From Escherichia phage HeidiAbel_Bas97, in the sequence record PQ850606.1: 41,040 bases of DNA. The stretch is one strand, 5' to 3'. This document shows, piece after piece, positions 3,080 through 38,832 of this stretch (its first letter is position 1; each line of letters opens with the position of its first letter). The translations under genes were made by a program, and so were the position numbers. A model generated the notes under the pieces. It did not search any database. It was not told where the DNA came from and saw only the letters and a list, made by a program, of their open reading frames with translations.

Positions 3080-4635
3080 TGAAACTGTGGCCATTTACCA
3101 GAAATAAGCCTGCCGAACAGGCACAACAGCCGCGCACGCGGCGTTTACCGCTTAACCGCCTGGCTTCCCGCATGTTTACGGGTGCCAGTGTTGACCGGTT
3201 GGGCACCGCGTGGGGCACGCAGCCGCTGACGGCTGACGAGGTAATCAACAAAAATCAACGCATCCTGGTGGCCCGTTCCCGCGAACAGGCCGCCAATAAC
3301 GACTATGCCAAAAAATTCCTGCGCCTGTGCCGCAACAATATTGTTGGGCCAAAAGGCGTTCTGTTGCAGGCCAAAAGCACTGACAACACCGGAAAACTGG
3401 ACACCCTGGCCAACGAAGCCATTGAAACTGCCTTCGATAAGTGGGGGCACAAGTCAAACTGCGACGTGACCGGGAAGTTATCCTGGCGCGCCATCCAGGC
3501 TGCGTGCATCAACAGCGCGGCCAAAGATGGTGAATTCTTCGTGCGCCTGGTGTTCGGTGCCGATGCAGGGCCGTGGGGCTTTGCGCTGCAACTGCTGGAC
3601 CCGCAACGCTGCCCTGTAGACATGGTTGAAGATCGTCTGAATAACGGAAATTTCATTCGCCAGGGCATCGAGTTTAACCGCTACGGGCGGCCTGTTGCGT
3701 ACTATTTCAGCACGGTTGATGAATCCGATGATAATTACCGTTGGTCCGGGCGTGATTTCGTGCGCATTCCCGCTGATGAAATCCTTCACGGCTTCCTGGA
3801 TGACATGGTGGGGCAGAAACGCGGCCTGCCGTGGATGGCCACCAGCCTGTTTCGTATGCGCCACCTGGGTGGCATGGAAGAAGCCGCGCTGGTCAACGCG
3901 CGAGCCGGTGCCAACAAAATGGGTTTCATCGAATGGGATGAAAATTCCGCTGGTCCTGAGTTTGAAGATGATGACGAACTGATCATTGACAGTGAACCGG
4001 GTGAATTCCAGGTGCTGCCACAGGGCGCACGCGTCAAAGACTGGTCGCCACAGTACCCCAACGGCGAATTTGCCGTGTTCACCAAACAAATGCTGCGCGG
4101 CATGGCATCGGGTATGGGCGTTCCGTATAATGACCTTGCCAGCGACCTGGAAGGCGTCAATTTCAGTTCAATCCGCCAGGGAACGCTAGACAGCCGCGAA
4201 AACTGGAAAGAATTGCAGGAATGGTTGATTGAAAACCTGCATCAACCCGTTTTTGAAGCATGGTTGCCGCGTGCCCTGCTTGCTGGTCGCATCACCGTTA
4301 AAGGCCGCAGCCTGAAACCGGAACGCATCGACCGCTACAGCGATATTGAATGGCAGCCACGCCGTTGGGCCTGGATTGACCCGTCATCTGACGTGGCAGC
4401 CGCTGAACGGTCCAAAAACAACATGCTGCAATCGCCTGGCCGCATCATCCGTGAAGGTGGCAGCGACCCTGACACCGTTTGGAAGGAAACCGCCAGCGAC
4501 GTGGCGCGCATGATTGAGGCGTACACGCAGCACGGCATCAGCCGCGAAATGGCGGAAAAACTGGTCATGCAAAGCATGGGCATGGACAAACAACTGTTAA
4601 TGGGGCAGCAAAATGCAGAAAAACCCGCTGAATAG
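3079..4635 (+). CDS. Portal protein (lambda gpB-like)
   Basis: Recalled similarity to lambda gpB; ATG at 3079 overlaps the upstream stop; the track ORF starts 42 nt further upstream in the same frame. Confidence 0.85.
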   Translation: MKLWPFTRNKPAEQAQQPRTRRLPLNRLASRMFTGASVDRLGTAWGTQPLTADEVINKNQRILVARSREQAANNDYAKKFLRLCRNNIVGPKGVLLQAKSTDNTGKLDTLANEAIETAFDKWGHKSNCDVTGKLSWRAIQAACINSAAKDGEFFVRLVFGADAGPWGFALQLLDPQRCPVDMVEDRLNNGNFIRQGIEFNRYGRPVAYYFSTVDESDDNYRWSGRDFVRIPADEILHGFLDDMVGQKRGLPWMATSLFRMRHLGGMEEAALVNARAGANKMGFIEWDENSAGPEFEDDDELIIDSEPGEFQVLPQGARVKDWSPQYPNGEFAVFTKQMLRGMASGMGVPYNDLASDLEGVNFSSIRQGTLDSRENWKELQEWLIENLHQPVFEAWLPRALLAGRITVKGRSLKPERIDRYSDIEWQPRRWAWIDPSSDVAAAERSKNNMLQSPGRIIREGGSDPDTVWKETASDVARMIEAYTQHGISREMAEKLVMQSMGMDKQLLMGQQNAEKPAE

Positions 4636-6661
4636 CATCATTGGGGCCGAATTTACCCGCAAATCTGACAGCAAAACGCTGCCTGATTTCAACAAAGGCG
4701 GGCTGGTGCGCACTATGGAAGTGCGCAAGTTTGACACCGAAAAACGCACCGTAGAACTGGCTTTTTCATCCGAAATCGAGGTTGAACGCTGGTACGGTAT
4801 CGAAATTCTGGACCATTCGCCGGAAAGCGTGCGCCTGGACCGTCTGCGTGACGGTGGGGCGCTGCTGGTTGACCACGATTGGACTGACCAGGTGGGCGTT
4901 GTTGAATCCGTCAGCATTGACGCTGACCGCCGGGGGCGGGCCGTGGTGCGCTTTGGCCGAAGTGCACGCGCTGACGAGATTTTCCAGGACATCGTTGACG
5001 GCATTCGCAAGCATGTTTCCGTGGGCTACCGCGTGTTAGCGGCCAAGCTACAGGAAACGCGTGACGAGTGGCAGGATGTCTATCGCATCACTGAATGGGA
5101 ACCTTACGAAATTTCAATTGTGAGTGTTCCCGCTGACGCCAGCGTTGGCGTTGGGCGTGCGTTTGACAAACCCCAAGAAGAACAACGCGGCAGCAAATCC
5201 GATACTGCGGGCACCGTAGAGGTTCCAGCACCAACAAATATTGCATCTGAGGGCATTAGAATGGAAAAAATTCTGCGCGACGCAGCCGGTAACCTGGTGC
5301 GCGCAATGGTAGACGAAAAAGGCAACATCACGCAGGTTCTGGAAATGCTGGAACGTGCTGGCGATGATGCGCGCAACGCTGAACAGCGTGGCCGTGAAGC
5401 CGAAAAGGCGCGTGTTCGTTCCATCACTGAAATGGGCGAGAAGTACAACGCACGTGACCTGGCTTTGAAAGCTATTGGCGAAGGCACCACCGCCGAAGAT
5501 TTCCAGCGTTCCTTGCTGGACCACCTGAACAAGCCGAAAGACCCGGCACAACCGGCTGATGGCACCCGTTCCGGCAGCAAGCCGCTGTCAGAAATGCCGT
5601 CCAGCGTGATTGGTATGTCTGACAAAGACATCCGCCGCTATAGCATTTTCAACGTGGTTCGCGCGCTGGCTAACCCGAACGATGCAGCCGCACAGCGTGC
5701 CGCAGCGTTTGAAATCGAATGCAGCCACGCAGCGCAACAGCAGTATGGCCGCAGTGCAAAAGGCATCCTGATCCCCGACGATGTTCTGCGCGCATTCAAC
5801 GCTGGTGGCGCACCGAACACCCCGGCAGGTGCACAGACCGGTTCCAACCTGGTTGGCACTGACTTTATGGCCAGTTCGTTCATCGACCTGCTGCGCCCGC
5901 GTACCACCATCATGCGCCTGGCGCGTACTATGGGCGGCCTGGTTGGTAACGTTGAAATTCCGAAACAGACTGGCGGCGCTACTGCCTACTGGATTGGTGA
6001 AGGTGATGACGCAACCGAAACCACGCCGACCATCGGCCAGCTTGGTTTGTCACCGAAAACCGTTGCGGCTTACACCGACATTACCCGCCGCCTGCTGATG
6101 CAATCCACCCCTGACGCGGAAGCTATCGTGCGCGGTGACCTGGTGGCAGCTATCGCGCAGGCGATTGATTACGCTGGTTACTACGGCACCGGCACCAGCA
6201 ACCAGCCGCTGGGCCTGGCGAACTACACCGGCATTAATGCGGTAGACTTCGCAGCAGACAACCCGACTTATGCGGAACTGGTGCAGATGGAAACCGAAAT
6301 TGCGGCAGACAACGCAGACGTGAACAACATGGCGTATGTGTTGAACGCGCGTGGCCGTGGTGCAGCGAAAACCACGCCGAAGTTTGCCAGCGGTTCTTCC
6401 GTTGCTGACGCTGGCGTGATTTGGGAGCCGGGCAACACCCTGAACGGTTACCGCGCCGAAGTTACCAACCAGGTGCAGGATGGTGACGTGTTCTTTGGCA
6501 ACTTCGCTGACCTGGTGGTTGGTATGTGGGGCGGCCTGGACATGACGGTTGACCCGTACAGCCTGAGCAAATCCGGCGGCCTGCGCATCGTGGTGTTCCA
6601 GGACGTGGATTTTGCGGTGCGCCGCGTTGAATCCTTCGCGCTTGGCCGCAACGCAGAATAA
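4613..6661 (+). CDS. Prohead protease, scaffold (delta-like) and major capsid protein (HK97 fold) in one ORF
   Basis: N-terminal ~190 aa resemble an HK97-type prohead protease; central charged coiled-coil segment; C-terminal ~400 aa resemble an HK97-fold capsid protein; internal in-frame ATG at 5261 with a GAGGG RBS. Confidence 0.75.
   Translation: MQKNPLNSIIGAEFTRKSDSKTLPDFNKGGLVRTMEVRKFDTEKRTVELAFSSEIEVERWYGIEILDHSPESVRLDRLRDGGALLVDHDWTDQVGVVESVSIDADRRGRAVVRFGRSARADEIFQDIVDGIRKHVSVGYRVLAAKLQETRDEWQDVYRITEWEPYEISIVSVPADASVGVGRAFDKPQEEQRGSKSDTAGTVEVPAPTNIASEGIRMEKILRDAAGNLVRAMVDEKGNITQVLEMLERAGDDARNAEQRGREAEKARVRSITEMGEKYNARDLALKAIGEGTTAEDFQRSLLDHLNKPKDPAQPADGTRSGSKPLSEMPSSVIGMSDKDIRRYSIFNVVRALANPNDAAAQRAAAFEIECSHAAQQQYGRSAKGILIPDDVLRAFNAGGAPNTPAGAQTGSNLVGTDFMASSFIDLLRPRTTIMRLARTMGGLVGNVEIPKQTGGATAYWIGEGDDATETTPTIGQLGLSPKTVAAYTDITRRLLMQSTPDAEAIVRGDLVAAIAQAIDYAGYYGTGTSNQPLGLANYTGINAVDFAADNPTYAELVQMETEIAADNADVNNMAYVLNARGRGAAKTTPKFASGSSVADAGVIWEPGNTLNGYRAEVTNQVQDGDVFFGNFADLVVGMWGGLDMTVDPYSLSKSGGLRIVVFQDVDFAVRRVESFALGRNAE
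5165..5181 (+). promoter_or_regulatory. Conserved 17-mer GACAAACCCCAAGAAGA, copy 2
   Basis: Exact match; 80 nt upstream of the internal in-frame ATG at 5261. Confidence 0.45.
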
Positions 6662-29851: not shown

Positions 29852-31267
29852 ATGGGCGTTGTGCTGCGTGACTATCAACAGGACATTATTGACAAGGGCC
29901 GCCAGGCGATGCGGCGGCATAAAAGAATACTTCTCCAGGCACCGACCGGCGCGGGCAAAACGGCCCTGGCGTCATTCATGGCCGCGCAGACTTCACAGAA
30001 GGGCCAGCAGGTTTGGTTCATTTGTCACCGCGCAGAACTGGTGCTGCAAACCAGCCTGACGTTTCGCAAGTTCGGCATTGACCACGGCTTTATTGCAGCA
30101 GGCTACCCCATGAACCTGCGCGCCGGGGTGCAGGTGTGCAGCATCGACACCCTGAAAAACCGCCTGCATACCCTGCCCGCACCTAAGCTGGCCATCATGG
30201 ACGAAGCGCACCACTGTGGCGCGGCTGGTTGGGCGCGCGTCAACGCCTGGCTGTTTGAAAATGGCGCGTATGTCATCGGCCTGTCAGCTACGCCAAAGCG
30301 CCTGGACGGCACCGGCCTGGATGACCACTTTGATGACATCGTGCTGGGGCCATCGGTGCGCTGGCTGATGGATAACGGCCACCTGTCTGATTATCGCATG
30401 TTCTGCCCGGACATCCCTGACATGAAGGGTGTACGCAAACAGATGGGCGATTTCTCAAAAGGCGAAACCGCCGAGAAGATGGATAAGCCGAAACTAACCG
30501 GCAACATCATCAGCCACTGGCTGAAATACGCCAAAGGGATGAAAACGGTTGGCTTTGCGGTCAACATTGCGCACAGCCGCCACTTAACGCAGGCATTCAT
30601 TGATTCAGGCATCCGCGCCGCACACCTGGACGGCGGCACCGATAAGGCGGAACGCAAGCGCATCATCCAGGACTACGCCAACGACAACCTGGATGTGATT
30701 TTCAACGTGTCGCTGTTCGGTGAAGGTTTCGACCTGTCAGCCATCGCACAGACTGACGTGACGATTGACTGCCTGATTGACGCACAGCCCACACAATCAT
30801 TGTCGCTGGTGTTGCAGAAAGATGGCCGCGTGTTGCGACCGTCGAAAGGCAAAACCGCTATCATCCTGGACCACGCAGGCAATGCGCTGCGTCATGGCTT
30901 CCCTGACGATGAACGGGAATGGTCACTGGCTGGCGATGACAGCGGCAGCAAATCCAGCAGTGCTGGTGGTCCACCGCCGCCAGTCATCTGCAAAGGCTGT
31001 TTCAACGCCATCCGCCGACCACTGCCGCCGAAGTGCCCGCACTGCCAGAAGGAACTACAGGCTGAAGCCAAAGAAATTGAAGTGGCAGAAGGCGAACTGC
31101 GCGAAATGGACGAACGCGCCAAAGAAAGCCTGCGCGCCAAGATGAGGCGCGAAGAAGATGCGTGCAAAGACATTGGCGCACTGACCGCCCTGGCGATGAA
31201 ACGCGGGCTGCCGAACCCATCAGGGTGGGCCATAGCGAAGATGGGCGGAAGAAGATTTAAGCGATGA
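29852..31267 (+). CDS. SF2 DEAH-box helicase with C-terminal zinc ribbon
   Basis: Motif I QAPTGAGKT, motif II MDEAHH, motif III GLSATP; C-terminal CKGC...CPHC. Confidence 0.8.
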   Translation: MGVVLRDYQQDIIDKGRQAMRRHKRILLQAPTGAGKTALASFMAAQTSQKGQQVWFICHRAELVLQTSLTFRKFGIDHGFIAAGYPMNLRAGVQVCSIDTLKNRLHTLPAPKLAIMDEAHHCGAAGWARVNAWLFENGAYVIGLSATPKRLDGTGLDDHFDDIVLGPSVRWLMDNGHLSDYRMFCPDIPDMKGVRKQMGDFSKGETAEKMDKPKLTGNIISHWLKYAKGMKTVGFAVNIAHSRHLTQAFIDSGIRAAHLDGGTDKAERKRIIQDYANDNLDVIFNVSLFGEGFDLSAIAQTDVTIDCLIDAQPTQSLSLVLQKDGRVLRPSKGKTAIILDHAGNALRHGFPDDEREWSLAGDDSGSKSSSAGGPPPPVICKGCFNAIRRPLPPKCPHCQKELQAEAKEIEVAEGELREMDERAKESLRAKMRREEDACKDIGALTALAMKRGLPNPSGWAIAKMGGRRFKR

Positions 31268-31356
31268 ATTGCAGTTGATTAATAGGTTTAAACATTTGGA
31301 GTATTTACCTAAGTAAAGGTATTATTATTTCAACGACAACAAACAGGGGCAGCAAA

Positions 31357-33892: not shown

Positions 33893-33927
33893 TTTACTTT
33901 CGGAAATGCGCCCTGTACTATGGGCGC
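33893..33927 (+). promoter_or_regulatory. Putative promoter (TTTACT, 17-nt spacer, TACTAT) with overlapping dyad GCGCCC-N8-GGGCGC
   Basis: Hexamers and spacing immediately upstream of the HTH gene at 33951; inverted repeat spans the -10. Confidence 0.4.
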
Positions 33928-33950
33928 ATTGTTATTACGAGGCTATTACT

Positions 33951-34139
33951 ATGGACGAAAGGACAGAACGACTTCACAACATTATGGCTGAACATGGCTT
34001 AACCTGCCGCGATGTTGGCCGTTTACTTGGCCGCACTGAACAAACGGTGCTTATCTGGCGCTGTAAGGGCGGGAAAGTCATTCCAACCCACCAGCTTGAA
34101 TTGCTTGAACTGAAACTGAACGCGCAGGCAGCGCAATGA
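33951..34139 (+). CDS. Small HTH DNA-binding regulator
   Basis: 62 aa; HTH-like LTCRDVGRLLGRTEQTVLIWRCKGG. Confidence 0.5.
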   Translation: MDERTERLHNIMAEHGLTCRDVGRLLGRTEQTVLIWRCKGGKVIPTHQLELLELKLNAQAAQ

Positions 34140-34378: not shown

Positions 34379-36688
34379 ATGAGTGCACAACAAAACTATA
34401 AGGATTTGACCGAACAGGAAATTGCAGAAGCACTTTCCTACATTGACGCCGGTTGCGACCGTGAAGCATGGGTGCGCATGGCGATGGCGGTCAAATCAGA
34501 ATTAGGCGACGGCGGTTTCACCGTCTGGAATGACTGGTCACGCCAGTCTGACAAGTACAACAGCAAAGACGCGCGCGACACCTGGAAATCAGTGAAGCGT
34601 CACGGCGGCATTGGCATTGGCACCCTGATTGGTGAGGCGCAGCAGTTCGGCTTTTCCCTGAACGATGAAGAACGCACCCCGCTGTCAGCGGAAGAAATCG
34701 AAGCACGCAAGCGCAAGCGCGAAGCCGAAGAAAAGGCAGAGCAGCAGCGCCGTGCCGAACGTATGGCGCAGGCAGCCGAACAGGCGCGCAACATATGGGA
34801 ATCAGCCACCGAACTGGAAGGCGATGAACACCCCTATTTGCAGCGCAAGAAGGTGCAGGCGTTTGGCCTTCGCGTTGGGCGGTTCTGGACAGAAAACCGC
34901 AGCATTGATGGCGCGCTGCTGGTTCCTGTGCGTAACATTGACGGGCAGATCACCAGTTTGCAGGCCATCTTCCCGAACGAAAACCCACAGCTAGGGCGTG
35001 ACCGTGATTATTTGCCTGGCGGCCAGAAGCGTGGATGCTTCCACGTCATCGGCGGCAAGCCGACTGGCGCAAACCCGGTCATTGTCATCTGTGAAGGCTA
35101 TTCAACCGGCGCGTCAATCCACCAGGCAACAGGCTACTGCGTTGTAGTGGCGTTTGATGCCGGTAACGTGCCGACCGTGGCCAAGCTGATGCGCCAGCAG
35201 TTCGGACGCGCAACAATTGTTGTGGCAGCCGATAACGACCAGTGGCACGAAGATGGCAAGCAAAATGATGGCGTTCACTACGCGCGCCAGGCCGCAACCA
35301 CTTGCGGCGGCCTGCTGGTGGTTCCGAAGTTCGCCGCACTGAGCGACAAGCCGACCGACTTCAACGACCTGCACAACCTGCAAGGGCTGGCAGAAGTTAA
35401 GCGCCAGATTAACGCCGCGATACCTGAACCGGCAAATGACAACTTTCTGCCGCTGGATGCCACGGTCAACCCGTTCATGTACCCGCACATGAGCCACCAG
35501 CAAAAGCCATTAAGCACCTGGGAAAACCTGGAATGGCTGCTGGACCAGTACGGCATCACGGCGCGTTATAACGAAATCAGCAAAGATGTGGTGGTGACCA
35601 TTCCAGGGCGTGACTATGGCGTTGACGCTTCGGCCAACTGTTCCCTGGCGGAAGTTTCCAGCCTGTGTGCCCGCAACGGTATGCCAAAAGGTGACGTGGG
35701 CGATTACATCAAGCTGATTGGCGTGGCCAACCGTTACAACCCGGCTGCTGAATTCATCACGTCACGGCCCTGGGATGGCGTCAGCCGCATTTATGACCTG
35801 GTTGACACCCTGGCCACACCTGCAGGCTTTGACCGTGGCCTGGTGCTGATGATGGTGCGCCGCTGGCTGATTTCTGCCGTGGCTGCCGTTATGAAGCCAA
35901 CCGGGTTCTGGTCCAAAGGCGTGCTGGTGTTACAGGGTGACCAGTCATTGGGGAAAACGTCCTGGTTCAAAGCACTGCTGCCGCCGACCATGCGCGACCT
36001 GGTGAAAGATGGCGCGACCATCGACCCTAGCAACAAAGACAGCGTGACCACCGCGATTGGCCACTGGATGGTTGAACTAGGCGAGCTTGACGCGACATTC
36101 CGCAAATCTGACATTGCCAGGCTGAAATCCTTCATCAGTTCTGACGTTGATATGCTGCGCCGCCCTTATGACCGGCTTGAATCGAAGTACCAGCGCCGCA
36201 CGGTGTTTTTTGCGTCAGTGAACCCCAAACACTTCCTGGCGGATGACACCGGGAACGTTCGCTGGTGGACCATTCCGGTGACCGGTGTGAACTATGCCCA
36301 CGACATCGACACGCAACAGCTATGGGCCGAAGTGGCGCAACTGTACCGTGACGGCGAACGCTGGTGGCTGGACCGTGACGAAGAAGCCATGCTGGAAGGC
36401 GTCAACAAGGAACACGAATCCATTGACCCGGTAGAGGAAATGATACTGGCGCGCTTTGAGTGGGGCAGCGAACGCATCAGCGCCTACCGAGAACATACCG
36501 CCAGCCAGGTGTTGCAGGAAATTGGCTTTGATAAGCCGAACAAGTCACAGGCCACGCATTGCAGCAACGTGCTGCGCAAGCTGACCGGGCAGGAACCGCG
36601 CAAGACGAAAAACGGGCGGTTCTTCAACCTGCCGCCAAAGGTGTTGCAGCCAGACTACCGGCGACCAGATGACGACAAGCCATTTTGA
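34379..36688 (+). CDS. DNA primase/helicase (P4 alpha-like: PriCT-2, TOPRIM, P-loop NTPase)
   Basis: N-terminal PriCT-2-like region, TOPRIM-like core (VIVICEGYSTGASI...VVAADNDQ) and P-loop GDQSLGKTS in a VirE/D5-like C-terminal half. Confidence 0.85.
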   Translation: MSAQQNYKDLTEQEIAEALSYIDAGCDREAWVRMAMAVKSELGDGGFTVWNDWSRQSDKYNSKDARDTWKSVKRHGGIGIGTLIGEAQQFGFSLNDEERTPLSAEEIEARKRKREAEEKAEQQRRAERMAQAAEQARNIWESATELEGDEHPYLQRKKVQAFGLRVGRFWTENRSIDGALLVPVRNIDGQITSLQAIFPNENPQLGRDRDYLPGGQKRGCFHVIGGKPTGANPVIVICEGYSTGASIHQATGYCVVVAFDAGNVPTVAKLMRQQFGRATIVVAADNDQWHEDGKQNDGVHYARQAATTCGGLLVVPKFAALSDKPTDFNDLHNLQGLAEVKRQINAAIPEPANDNFLPLDATVNPFMYPHMSHQQKPLSTWENLEWLLDQYGITARYNEISKDVVVTIPGRDYGVDASANCSLAEVSSLCARNGMPKGDVGDYIKLIGVANRYNPAAEFITSRPWDGVSRIYDLVDTLATPAGFDRGLVLMMVRRWLISAVAAVMKPTGFWSKGVLVLQGDQSLGKTSWFKALLPPTMRDLVKDGATIDPSNKDSVTTAIGHWMVELGELDATFRKSDIARLKSFISSDVDMLRRPYDRLESKYQRRTVFFASVNPKHFLADDTGNVRWWTIPVTGVNYAHDIDTQQLWAEVAQLYRDGERWWLDRDEEAMLEGVNKEHESIDPVEEMILARFEWGSERISAYREHTASQVLQEIGFDKPNKSQATHCSNVLRKLTGQEPRKTKNGRFFNLPPKVLQPDYRRPDDDKPF

Positions 36689-36694
36689 TTAATA

Positions 36695-36720
36695 ACCCGC
36701 TTCGGCGGGTTTTGTTTTTA
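36695..36720 (+). terminator. Rho-independent terminator after the primase
   Basis: ACCCGC-TTCG-GCGGGT then TTTTGTTTTTATT. Confidence 0.6.
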
Positions 36721-36979
36721 TTGATAGGTAGAAACGATTATGTATTTACCAAAGTAAAGGTGTAGTATTTATCACATAGGGCGGCGGCAGGATGCAGCCG
36801 GAGAGGAGCAACGCAGGGGCTTGATCGTAGTGTCAGGATTCCCAACCGTGAGGCCAGAACGCACACACTACCGGAAACGGAGAACGCTAGTGCGGTTACT
36901 GAACCGAGGCTACCGACGAAGCACGACGCCCGCCAATTAACCAACCTACCCCACCAGCGTGGGGCCACTGGTGAACACC

Positions 36980-37057
36980 ATGAACAACATCATTTTCATC
37001 TACGCCATCGGCGCACTGCTGGTGGCATATGCACTGATTGAATCGGGGGTTTTATGA
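36980..37057 (+). CDS. Putative leader / small hydrophobic peptide (25 aa)
   Basis: MNNIIFIYAIGALLVAYALIESGVL; stop overlaps the next ATG (ATGA). Confidence 0.25.
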   Translation: MNNIIFIYAIGALLVAYALIESGVL

Positions 37058-38106
37058 AACAGGTAACGATTGACACCGTGCGCGAGCGCATAGCGGAACT
37101 GGAAATGGTCAACAGTCACGGCGAACTGTCATTGCGCGGCGAATTCGAACTGGCGTGTTTGCGGATGCTGGCCGATTCAATGGGCGGCGTTGACGATGAC
37201 GTGCGCAACGTGGTGGTCCTGCTGGAAAACAACGAATGGGCAGAGCATTGCACCAACACGGTTTTAGGTTCACGCCTGGAAAGCGAAATAACCCGCCTGG
37301 TTGGCCACGTGCAGCCAGCGCCGGTAGCAAGCGATGCGGAACCATCATTTGACGCCATGATGCGCGCGCTTGATGCGTTCTATGCTGATGACGATGTGCC
37401 GGAACTTGCCATGCTGGCGGCGTTCAGAATCCTGCTGGCTGATGTGCGTAACCAGCCAGCGCCGGTTGTGATCGATGACGTTATGGAAGAAATCAACAGG
37501 TGGGCTACTGACCGCAGTTTGGTTGGTCGTAATAACTACACGCAGCAGCAAAACGCACTTATTGATGTTTACATTGGCCTGACTGAGCCGCAAGTGCCCG
37601 TGGCTGTGCCTGACGAAGTCACCAGCGAGCAGGCTTATCAAATTGGTGACTACTATGGCGACCCAATAGATGTATTCGCACGTGGGGCAAACTGGATGCG
37701 ATCAAAGATTATCGGCAACATGCTCCTGGCTGACATGGACCGCGCAGCAACGCGCAAGGTGCAGGAACTGACAACATGCAACACAGCGCAGCAGTTTGAA
37801 GCGTTGACCACCAACGGCAAGAGTGAAGACCTGTTGAATGCGGAACGGATAGCCAGGGAAGCAAAGGCGTTGTCTGACCGGCTGAACGACACCAGCGCGG
37901 TTCATCCTCGCGTCAGTGGTTGGTCAAAGCGTCAGCAGAAAGTGATTTCATATTCACTGTGGCGTTTCATGCACTCCGCTTATGAAATGGCAAAAGATGC
38001 AGCGCAGAAAGGCACAAAGGAAGATTTTGACAGGTTCATGCAGGATGCAAAATGCGCGGAGGAAATCAGGGAGGAATTCACCAGCGCGGGAAGCGGCAAG
38101 CCATGA
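37054..38106 (+). CDS. Hypothetical acidic protein
   Basis: 350-aa ORF with no recognisable motif. Confidence 0.55.
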   Translation: MKQVTIDTVRERIAELEMVNSHGELSLRGEFELACLRMLADSMGGVDDDVRNVVVLLENNEWAEHCTNTVLGSRLESEITRLVGHVQPAPVASDAEPSFDAMMRALDAFYADDDVPELAMLAAFRILLADVRNQPAPVVIDDVMEEINRWATDRSLVGRNNYTQQQNALIDVYIGLTEPQVPVAVPDEVTSEQAYQIGDYYGDPIDVFARGANWMRSKIIGNMLLADMDRAATRKVQELTTCNTAQQFEALTTNGKSEDLLNAERIAREAKALSDRLNDTSAVHPRVSGWSKRQQKVISYSLWRFMHSAYEMAKDAAQKGTKEDFDRFMQDAKCAEEIREEFTSAGSGKP

Positions 38107-38426
38107 GCCTGGCAACCGATATTCTGTGGCGCGCTTTTGTTACGCAGGCGAAACAGAAGCAGAAGCCAAAACCAGCACCAGTGGTGGCAAAACCAAAACC
38201 GGAAGTCACTGCAATCAGCAACCGCAACCTGCACCTTGCGCGCGTCCCTGGATGTCAGCGATTGGCGTGGGGTTGGCAGGTGACGTGCGGTGATGGCAAG
38301 AAGCAACACACCCTGGGAACATTCAAAACAATGCCACGCGCACGCATCGCATGGCGACTTTGGCACCTGTGGAAGCGCAGAGGATTTGCCGACATCCCCA
38401 CCGGTCCAACCACGCTTGAACACTAA
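38103..38426 (+). CDS. Putative AP2-like DNA-binding protein
   Basis: ATGA-coupled; segment WQVTCGDGKKQHTLGTFKTMPRARIAWRLW resembles the AP2 beta-sheet DNA-binding motif. Confidence 0.4.
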   Translation: MSLATDILWRAFVTQAKQKQKPKPAPVVAKPKPEVTAISNRNLHLARVPGCQRLAWGWQVTCGDGKKQHTLGTFKTMPRARIAWRLWHLWKRRGFADIPTGPTTLEH

Positions 38427-38449
38427 CCGCCTTCGGGCGGTTTTTTATT
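38427..38449 (+). terminator. Rho-independent terminator
   Basis: CCGCC-TTCG-GGCGG then TTTTTTATT directly after the stop. Confidence 0.65.
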
Positions 38450-38451
38450 GC

Positions 38452-38773
38452 GGTGACTAAAGTTGGTCACCTTGTCACCTAGTTGGTCACCTAGTTGGTC
38501 ACCACTTAAACCCCTGATATGACTATATAAATGACTAAAGGTGACTAAGGGTGACAAGGATTTATAAAGTTTAGATTGGGGGAAATACAAGGTGATAGGT
38601 ACAGCCTATCAATAGTGCGCACAGAGGGCAGAATGACATTAATATAGGAAATTGTTGTCACCTTAGTCACCCAAACCCAAAAACGCGCATTTTGTCTTTA
38701 TAAATCAAGATGATTGACGGGTGACAAGCGGGTGACCAACTCTTTGCCACCTTGTCACCCTTTTCTGGTCACC
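38452..38773. repeat. Iteron-like array: at least 14 copies of GGTGAC/GTCACC (including TTGGTCACC x4 and TTGTCACC x3) with AT-rich spacers
   Basis: Counted directly, both orientations, between the terminator at 38427 and the Mor-like gene. Confidence 0.7.
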
Positions 38774-38832
38774 GTTCATCTTTTCGGCTACAATCCCCAC
38801 ATTGACTTTTATTTATAATTATTGGGGGTTAC

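Follow-up and report, generated by a model that had tools for sequence, protein, structure and literature searches.

The sequence of Escherichia phage HeidiAbel_Bas97 (PQ850606.1), the whole 41,040 bp of which is referred to here as the window, comes from a Jilinvirus-type myophage of the subfamily Iiscvirinae. At positions 38452–38773 it carries a dense array of short repeats, or iterons, with the core GGTGAC/GTCACC. The closest records are those of Escherichia phages Alux-21 and vB_EcoM_ECOO78 and Salmonella phage PT1, which are ~95% identical to the window over the array region. We analyzed the array computationally together with its counterparts in related phages and plasmids, and we propose that it is probably the replication origin of the phage, served by the phage's own primase-helicase.

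The array contained 13 exact copies of the hexamer, five on the + strand and eight on the - strand. Two additional iterons were in register with a single mismatch each (GGTGAT at 38591 and GGTGGC at 38746). A preliminary description of the window had reported a dense array in both orientations over about 320 bp, and this held true. Its figure of at least 14 copies, on the other hand, is one too many for exact matches and one too few when the near copies are included (15). The copies formed four groups, namely a left outer cluster, a left inner pair, a right inner pair and a right outer cluster, and the spacing between iterons was 8–15 bp inside each cluster. The parts of the array are as follows:

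38452–38503, no strand: left outer iteron cluster, 5 copies in the orientation + - - - -
38504–38539, no strand: AT-rich spacer, 72% AT
38540–38555, + strand: left inner direct iteron pair GGTGACtaagGGTGAC, the putative origin core; the pair is kept even in the reduced arrays of three relatives (L172, L145 and L141; L numbers designate the loci compared)
38556–38656, no strand: central AT-rich spacer of 101 bp, 63% AT, the proposed DNA-unwinding region
38657–38671, - strand: right inner iteron pair GTCACCttaGTCACC, in the opposite orientation to the left inner pair
38672–38719, no strand: AT-rich spacer, 65% AT, with a conserved CTTTATAAATCAA at 38696–38708
38720–38773, no strand: right outer iteron cluster, in the orientation + + and then - (degenerate, 38746) - -

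The remaining 40.7 kb of the window held 56 copies of GGTGAC, and when the whole 41,040-bp sequence was scanned no 320-bp segment outside the array had more than five copies of GGTGAC/GTCACC. As this background amounts to only ~0.44 copies per 322 bp, the 13 copies in the array are far above chance (~1e-15 by our own Poisson estimate from these counts). The extended consensus of the iterons was GGTGAC[C/T/A]A[A/G]. The tandem units that had been described earlier were readily recognized as TAGTTGGTCACC at 38481–38503, with AAGTTGGTCACC just before them. Across five Jilinvirus genomes, 61 of 78 iteron columns were invariant, compared to 86 of 244 other columns of the array (Fisher P = 2e-11).

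Outside the array GGTGAC was also ~2.7-fold over-represented (56 copies versus ~20 expected), and we considered these dispersed copies as binding sites. We rejected this idea: 24 of the 56 copies represent a GGT codon followed in frame by a GAC codon on the coding strand, and the extended 9-mers are found only singly, so the excess looks like an effect of codon usage.

The AT-rich stretches noted previously between the clusters were confirmed. The AT content of the whole window is 45%, compared to 72%, 63% and 65% in the three spacers of the array. Duplex stability was lowest in the whole 41 kb for a 150-bp segment that starts at 38516 and is centred on the array core, while a 100-bp segment at the array centre was the second lowest of its size. 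The central spacer contains the degenerate iteron at 38591, a TATAGGAAAT element and the hairpin GATAGG-TACAG-CCTATC (38593–38611), which the preliminary description had singled out. The hairpin is indeed present, with a 7-bp stem, but it stands out only modestly (z = -2.3; folds as good were obtained with 3 of 200 shuffled sequences) and its sequence is not conserved in the related phages Arya or KA2-1. We therefore dropped it as a notable signal.

Two side observations concern the same spacer. Palindromes bearing GTACAG are often found in the central AT-rich spacers (window 38593–38611; Mica, here L007; L111, L141, L145 and L214), and a TATAGGAAAT-like element often lies just 5' of the right inner iteron pair (window 38636–38650 and relatives). 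Either of these could be a priming or melting signal.

Between 38400 and 38850 we found no DnaA box at two or fewer mismatches, no full integration host factor (IHF) consensus and no GATC. The conserved CTTTATAAATCAA includes an IHF-core-like WATCAA and falls short of the full IHF consensus. The absence of these sites fits a self-loading initiator, and the window encodes a candidate for such a protein upstream of the array. The features of its gene, and those that border the array, are listed below:

34379–36688, + strand: gene for a 769-aa primase-helicase, the proposed origin-binding initiator, with PriCT_2, a Toprim primase, a VapE-type superfamily 3 (SF3) helicase and a predicted C-terminal winged helix
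36341–36685, + strand: the C-terminal 115 residues (655–769), a predicted winged-helix DNA-binding domain with the topology a1-b1-a2-a3-b2-b3
36608–36616, + strand: the wing-tip codons K744-N745-G746 (translation RKTKNGRFF), which separate iteron classes
38425–38450, + strand: intrinsic terminator closing the replication operon directly before the array, a 7-bp G+C-rich stem followed by a T run, conserved in relatives
38766–38794, + strand: sigma-70-like promoter of the mor gene, TGGTCA-17-TACAAT, with its -35-like hexamer overlapped by the last iteron

The array thus occupies the gap between the strong terminator that comes after a 124-aa open reading frame (ORF) and the promoter of a Mor-like gene (144 aa, "late transcriptional activator", phrog_836, E = 1e-30), downstream of which lie holins, an endolysin and a spanin. 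The TACAAT element of the mor promoter is shared among genera. The array starts 1764 bp past the end of the primase-helicase gene (36688), in agreement with the distance of about 1.7 kb given previously.

The primase-helicase matched the Pfam families PF08707, PF13362 and PF05272 (VapE-like_dom, E = 4.5e-51) and PHROGs 2249 and 1313. A phmmer search of the PDB returned 7pds_A, the PriRep protein of a staphylococcal pathogenicity island (SaPI), as the sole solved homologue by sequence (E = 6.8e-19, residues 447–652). When the protein was compared to the alpha protein of phage P4 by BLASTP, only the Toprim domain was similar (31% identity over 242 aa, E = 2e-18). The label "P4-alpha-like" that the protein had been given is therefore apt for the primase domain, but the helicase is of the VapE/PriRep type and the C-terminus is not detectably related in sequence to that of alpha.

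The C-terminal domain was more difficult to place. A protein search with the last 115 residues alone matched one protein, after which we used full-length homologues (from a set of ~700) for the analysis of this domain, and a profile of the domain matched no sequence in the PDB at E < 0.5. An AlphaFold2 model of the last 115 residues had a mean predicted local distance difference test score of 74 (78–88 in the core) with the secondary structure order listed above. On this model the C-terminal domain of the primase-helicase is predicted to be a winged helix.

To identify proteins that go with the array we collected 80 IMG/VR loci by an alignment of the helicase half, taking up to 7 kb of flank on each side (loci of up to ~15 kb). 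Among these, 40 non-redundant loci lacked any Mor-like gene. In 26 of these 40, the cluster with the highest hexamer density in the locus started between -200 and +400 bp from the helicase stop, compared to an expectation of ~5.7% per locus (binomial P ~6e-23, with kinship ignored). The genes 3' of these arrays varied and included those for an HNH endonuclease, a resolvase-like protein, a DNA helicase and unknowns. As the array lies at the helicase stop in the absence of mor, and as the downstream genes are heterogeneous, the helicase is the only constant partner of the array.

The iterons also co-varied with the helicase. We compared six genomes with GGTGAC arrays to ten with (T)GGGAC arrays, and 3 of the 383 ungapped columns of the helicase half separated the two classes. 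The three columns are contiguous (residues 744–746; K versus G, A/N/T versus S, and G versus A/K/N/R in the GGTGAC and (T)GGGAC classes, respectively) and fall at the b2–b3 turn of the AlphaFold2 model, that is, at the wing tip. No column separated the classes in the Mor-like protein (0/118), the Holliday-junction resolvase (0/104) or DUF7696 (0/60). A small helix-turn-helix (HTH) protein encoded upstream of the primase (33906–34139) had one such column in 52, at which the residues were heterogeneous within each class.

The classes are interleaved among the helicases, and in three pairs the closest helicase cores differ in class. The cores of L137 and L138 are 93% identical, those of L154 (Mica) and L155 90%, and those of L171 and L167 83%. 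In every pair a different hexamer goes with a different wing: RKTKNGRFF versus RKSGSNRLF, KRTKAGRFF versus RKSGSRRVF, and KKTKAGRFY versus KRTGSGRYY, respectively.

In Serratia phage MQ-4 (L008; 37050–39743 and 41400–41700) both the helicase/C-terminal half and the iterons differ from those of the window. Its primase-helicase is 40% identical to that of the window over residues 5–375, which is the N-terminal primase half only, while the rest of the protein is longer than and unrelated to its counterpart in the window, and its array is built of GGTAAC. From the sequences, this looks like a joint exchange of helicase and origin as one module.

A single layout recurred across the helicase family: an outer cluster, two direct repeats, an AT-rich spacer, two inverted repeats and another outer cluster. 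The hexamer from which this layout is built differs by lineage. The GGTGAC class comprises the window, ECOO78, Alux-21, Arya, KA2-1 and Burkholderia phage Mica. GGTGAC arrays laid out as in the window are present in Arya and KA2-1, which are ~71% identical to it in the array region, in Mica, which belongs to another genus and infects another host, and in the metagenomic locus L111. The left outer cluster is shared by Arya, KA2-1, Mica and L111, and it occurs with other hexamers in distant relatives.

TGGGAC/GTCCCA is used by L138, L142, L151, L155 and others, and AGTGAC by L165, L167 and L169, while MQ-4 keeps the layout with GGTAAC/GTTACC. The hexamers of more distant relatives include GTACAC, GTTCCA, GTGTCA, GTGAAC, AGTGCA/GTTGCA, GGGTAA and CCTCAC, among more.

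The minimal conserved core consists of two direct repeats, an AT-rich spacer and two inverted repeats, and a strict form of this pattern was found in 26 of 39 loci. The core spacers of these 26 loci were 56–154 bp long (mean 94) and their AT content was 0.19 above the average of the locus. L172, L145 and L141 keep the core alone.

In two loci the array was found in another position. L152 (the same as L016) has 13 copies of AGGGAC at 104–383, ~1.5 kb upstream of the primase ORF, and L173 has 12 copies of GGTGAC(G) at 4597–4901, between a divergently transcribed mor gene and the primase operon.

A homologous PriCT_2-Toprim-VapE protein is also encoded by two small circular plasmids, and in both of them an array with the recurrent layout lies downstream of the gene. 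The 9.3-kb Salmonella plasmid pR17.0904_9.3k has a helicase half 62% identical to that of the window and 11 copies of GTGTCA, with a small ORF between helicase and array; none of its other annotated ORFs matched a Pfam family. In the 9.9-kb Stutzerimonas plasmid pPSEST02, nine copies of GTGGGA directly follow the helicase. No replicon type is listed for either plasmid, and each has a single array. As both carry the helicase and the array and no other recognizable replication gene, their sequences suggest that helicase and array together are a sufficient replicon.

Based on these sequence comparisons and on analogy with the SaPIs, we consider it likely, at a probability of roughly 0.78, that the array at 38452–38773 is the replication origin of the phage and that it works by a SaPI-type mechanism with the phage's own primase-helicase. 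The preliminary description had likewise proposed an iteron origin served by the upstream primase/helicase. That proposal gains support from the linkage of array and helicase, the co-variation with the wing, the SaPI-like architecture and the plasmid modules.

We infer that the primase-helicase binds the iterons, melts the DNA and initiates replication, and these steps might proceed as follows. The 769-aa protein would be a self-loading SF3 initiator whose C-terminal winged helix recognizes the GGTGAC[N]A hexamer iterons. Occupation of the convergent inner pairs (38540–38555 and 38657–38671), assisted by the outer clusters, would place helicase hexamers on both sides of the 101-bp spacer. The AT-rich spacer would then melt, and the helicase and its fused Toprim primase would begin synthesis there.

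Several observations weigh against this interpretation. Adjacency of array and helicase gene does not hold in the window, where two ORFs and a terminator intervene over 1.76 kb, while the array abuts the mor promoter with its last iteron over the -35-like hexamer. Other intergenic stretches, for example at ~31250, come close to the array in AT content. GC skew and cumulative skew track gene orientation, with the minimum near 30–31 kb at the strand switch; they are uninformative on the array and we discarded them as origin evidence. The co-variation sample is small (16–19 related genomes) and ignores kinship. Finally, the PLSDB gene tables for the plasmids are incomplete and several of the plasmid ORFs are of unknown function.

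Among the alternatives, the one that fares best is that the helicase does bind the array but that the array is a replication enhancer, like crr of phage P4, or a copy-control or handcuffing site, with synthesis starting elsewhere. In the annotated P4 record crr lies just past the alpha terminator, P4 needs a separate ori 4.5 kb away, and both elements are made of type 1 repeats. The 120-bp unit of crr, moreover, has the order (+ - - -), spacer, (+ +) and in this respect resembles the left half of the array. We nevertheless regard this explanation as improbable: there is no second motif cluster in the 41-kb window, where segments of 320 bp beyond the array have at most five copies and the extended 9-mers are single; the array has the complete SaPI-type layout of convergent pairs around an AT-rich centre; and the small plasmids make do with one array.

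It is less probable still that the array is primarily an operator or enhancer for the Mor-like late-activator gene, bound by the Mor-like protein or another phage regulator. Control of the Mor-like gene had been offered previously as the alternative to an origin, and we disfavor it as the primary function. The array does end 15 nt before the TACAAT -10 element of mor, with the last iteron overlapping the -35-like hexamer, but this spacing, which is the same in Arya and KA2-1, is 26–49 nt in L014, L013 and L032. Similarly, the array lies upstream of a mor homologue in all Jilinvirus-, Mica- and MQ-4-like genomes, and in L173 it lies beside a mor gene that points the opposite way to the primase operon; in Achromobacter phage Mano, however, the repeat region is separated by an ORF of 246 nt from the conserved promoter and leader of mor. 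The absence of class-separating columns among the 118 of the Mor-like protein argues against it as the binding protein, as does the fact that its identity to the window protein ignores the motif: 62% in MQ-4 (GGTAAC), 63% in L138 (TGGGAC), 61% in Arya (GGTGAC) and 49% in Mica (GGTGAC). Of the 40 non-redundant loci whose fetched flanks lack a Mor-like gene, 26 have their array at the stop codon of the helicase, which points in the same direction. As for another regulator, the small HTH protein offers just its one heterogeneous discriminating column.

The ORFs of 124 aa and 350 aa that precede the array were also considered as array binders and rejected. The array persists in Mica-like and more distant genomes in which both ORFs are missing.

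Finally, P1 parS and P1 pac have short repeats arrayed in both orientations about a bend site, terminase genes lie ~2 kb downstream in the close relative Alux-21, and phage Mica encodes a ParB-like protein, but it is highly improbable that the array is a partition (centromere-like) or packaging recognition site. The motif varies together with the wing of the helicase, and in distant relatives the array comes after the helicase gene, with first downstream ORFs (as scanned in seven of these loci) that are neither terminase nor partition genes. The 16 genomes that we compared have no ParB-like protein in common.

A role of the array as origin leaves room for a secondary effect of iteron occupancy on mor transcription. 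Such a regulatory role is conceivable because the array extends up to the mor promoter, the -35-like hexamer of which is overlapped by the last iteron. It could be speculated that mor transcription is switched by occupancy of the outermost iteron by the initiator, by its clearance or by melting of the origin, and the array may in this way gate late expression. If so, the late program (lysis and structural genes) would be coupled to origin firing. Separately, the more modest reading of the co-variation is that a swap of the wing-tip tripeptide (TK-x-G versus SG-S-x) would be enough to re-target the initiator between GGTGAC and TGGGAC origins, in which case nature would have provided a set of orthogonal replicons. 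Taken jointly, we consider these two proposals rather unlikely.

The helicase gene and the array are separated by a mosaic segment (36689–38426). The 350-aa ORF (37054–38106) and the 124-aa ORF (38052–38426) overlap in different frames; at the same position in Alux-21, Arya and L138 they are replaced or only weakly similar, and they are absent from Mica-like genomes. This mosaicism suggests, at the level of sequence, that insertions have separated the putative origin from the helicase gene.

On the other side of the array, the leader of the Mor-like gene (window 38789–38832, with equivalents in L002–L006) carries a TACAATCCC-N4/5-TTGAC element that is conserved in Jilinvirus, Mica, Mano and MQ-4, and a longer stretch of the leader, CATTGACTTTTATTTATAATTA, is invariant in the five Jilinvirus genomes. 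This stretch contains TTGACT and TATAAT just 6 nt apart, a non-canonical spacing for a promoter. We scanned viral contigs for the TACAATCCC-N4/5-TTGAC element and set the scan aside, as the matches were mostly due to chance and few of the loci were true relatives.

A 19-nt element, TATTTACC[T/A]AAGTAAAGGT, occurs exactly twice in the window (31302–31320 and 36743–36761, both on the + strand) compared to 0.01 expected. Each copy lies just past a gene end or terminator (the end of a helicase ORF at 31267 and the primase terminator at ~36693–36718, respectively) and before the next ORF on the + strand. The element may serve as a promoter or regulatory site particular to the phage. The least stable 30–100-bp stretch of the window is at ~31250–31350, near the upturn of the cumulative GC skew where leftward transcription gives way to rightward (~30–31 kb). 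There is no repeat array at ~31250–31350, and it is probably an early promoter region.

Phages of the genus Jilinvirus and the subfamily Iiscvirinae have been described as poorly characterized (10.1101/2024.09.12.612763), and we found no description of a Jilinvirus origin in the searchable literature. The kind of origin proposed here is already known and no new kind of mechanism is revealed, but the Jilinvirus instance appears to be undescribed. Our analysis places this putative origin and names its probable initiator and specificity domain. It also indicates that replicons of the SaPI type, in which a self-loading primase-helicase comes with a recognizable iteron module, are widely distributed among Gram-negative phages and small plasmids. 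The way in which wing tips and iteron classes go together offers a directly testable determinant of specificity. Possible uses include the automatic annotation of origins beside VapE-type helicases and the design of orthogonal minimal replicons.

How does the array compare to characterized origins? Like the iteron plasmids (pPS10/RepA, R6K/pi and RK2/TrfA) and the lambda ori with its O protein, it has repeated putative initiator sites beside an AT-rich unwinding region and a predicted winged-helix initiator. In those systems, however, the iterons are 17–22 bp long and mostly direct, and they are accompanied by DnaA boxes and loading of the host DnaB. The window has hexamers in both orientations and, we propose, an initiator that is itself the helicase. 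With hexamers, and with no DnaA box, GATC or full IHF site, it does not resemble a classical iteron-plasmid or DnaA-dependent origin.

There are also points of resemblance to phage P4. The Toprim primase domain is homologous to that of the alpha protein, and the domain order is the same: primase, SF3 helicase and a C-terminal DNA-binding domain, the last of these predicted for the window. The alpha protein reportedly binds its repeats through the C-terminal domain. The likeness of the iterons to P4 type 1 repeats, pointed out in the preliminary description, is real, as the core GGTGAACA of the P4 record resembles GGTGAC-N-A, but it stops short of identity. The type 1 repeat is GGTGAACA/TGTTCACC compared to GGTGAC[C/T/A]A in the window, so the two are related and not the same. 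A distant relative of the window, L190, uses GTGAACA/TGTTCAC.

In other respects P4 differs. The helicase half has no significant BLASTP similarity to alpha, and the profile of the C-terminal domain aligned to the last 130 residues of alpha with an hhalign probability of 0.1. P4 has a bipartite ori and crr, whereas the 41-kb window has a single array, and the P4 repeats are octamers that in crr form a direct duplication in place of a convergent arrangement. Each 120-bp crr unit (L217, 4291–4590) nevertheless has its groups separated by a ~40-bp A-rich spacer, as in the left half of the window array. The crr unit and the window array may therefore share an ancestral half-origin unit in spite of their unrelated DNA-binding domains.

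The SaPI Rep and PriRep helicases double as initiators: a C-terminal winged helix recognizes penta- or hexanucleotide iterons, for which ATP is not needed, and the origin consists of 6–12 iterons immediately downstream of rep, with an AT-rich centre and at least two opposed iterons on each side (PMC9371898). The window shares a homologous VapE-type SF3 helicase core (7pds, E = 7e-19), a primase fused to the helicase as in PriRep, a predicted C-terminal winged helix and an absence of DnaA boxes. It has short hexanucleotide iterons with at least two opposed copies on each side of an AT-rich centre, in the form of GGTGACtaagGGTGAC, 101 bp at 63% AT and then GTCACCttaGTCACC. As in the SaPIs, the array comes right after the helicase gene in many relatives (26/40).

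There are also differences. The window belongs to a Gram-negative myophage and not to a satellite island, and the N-terminus of its primase consists of PriCT_2 and Toprim domains. Its 13–15 iterons in four groups are slightly above the SaPI range of 6–12. In the window itself the array is 1.76 kb away from the helicase gene and abuts a late-activator promoter. The array thus shows every SaPI sequence feature that we looked for except gene adjacency and, as judged from its sequence, its nearest characterized system is the SaPI Rep/PriRep origin.

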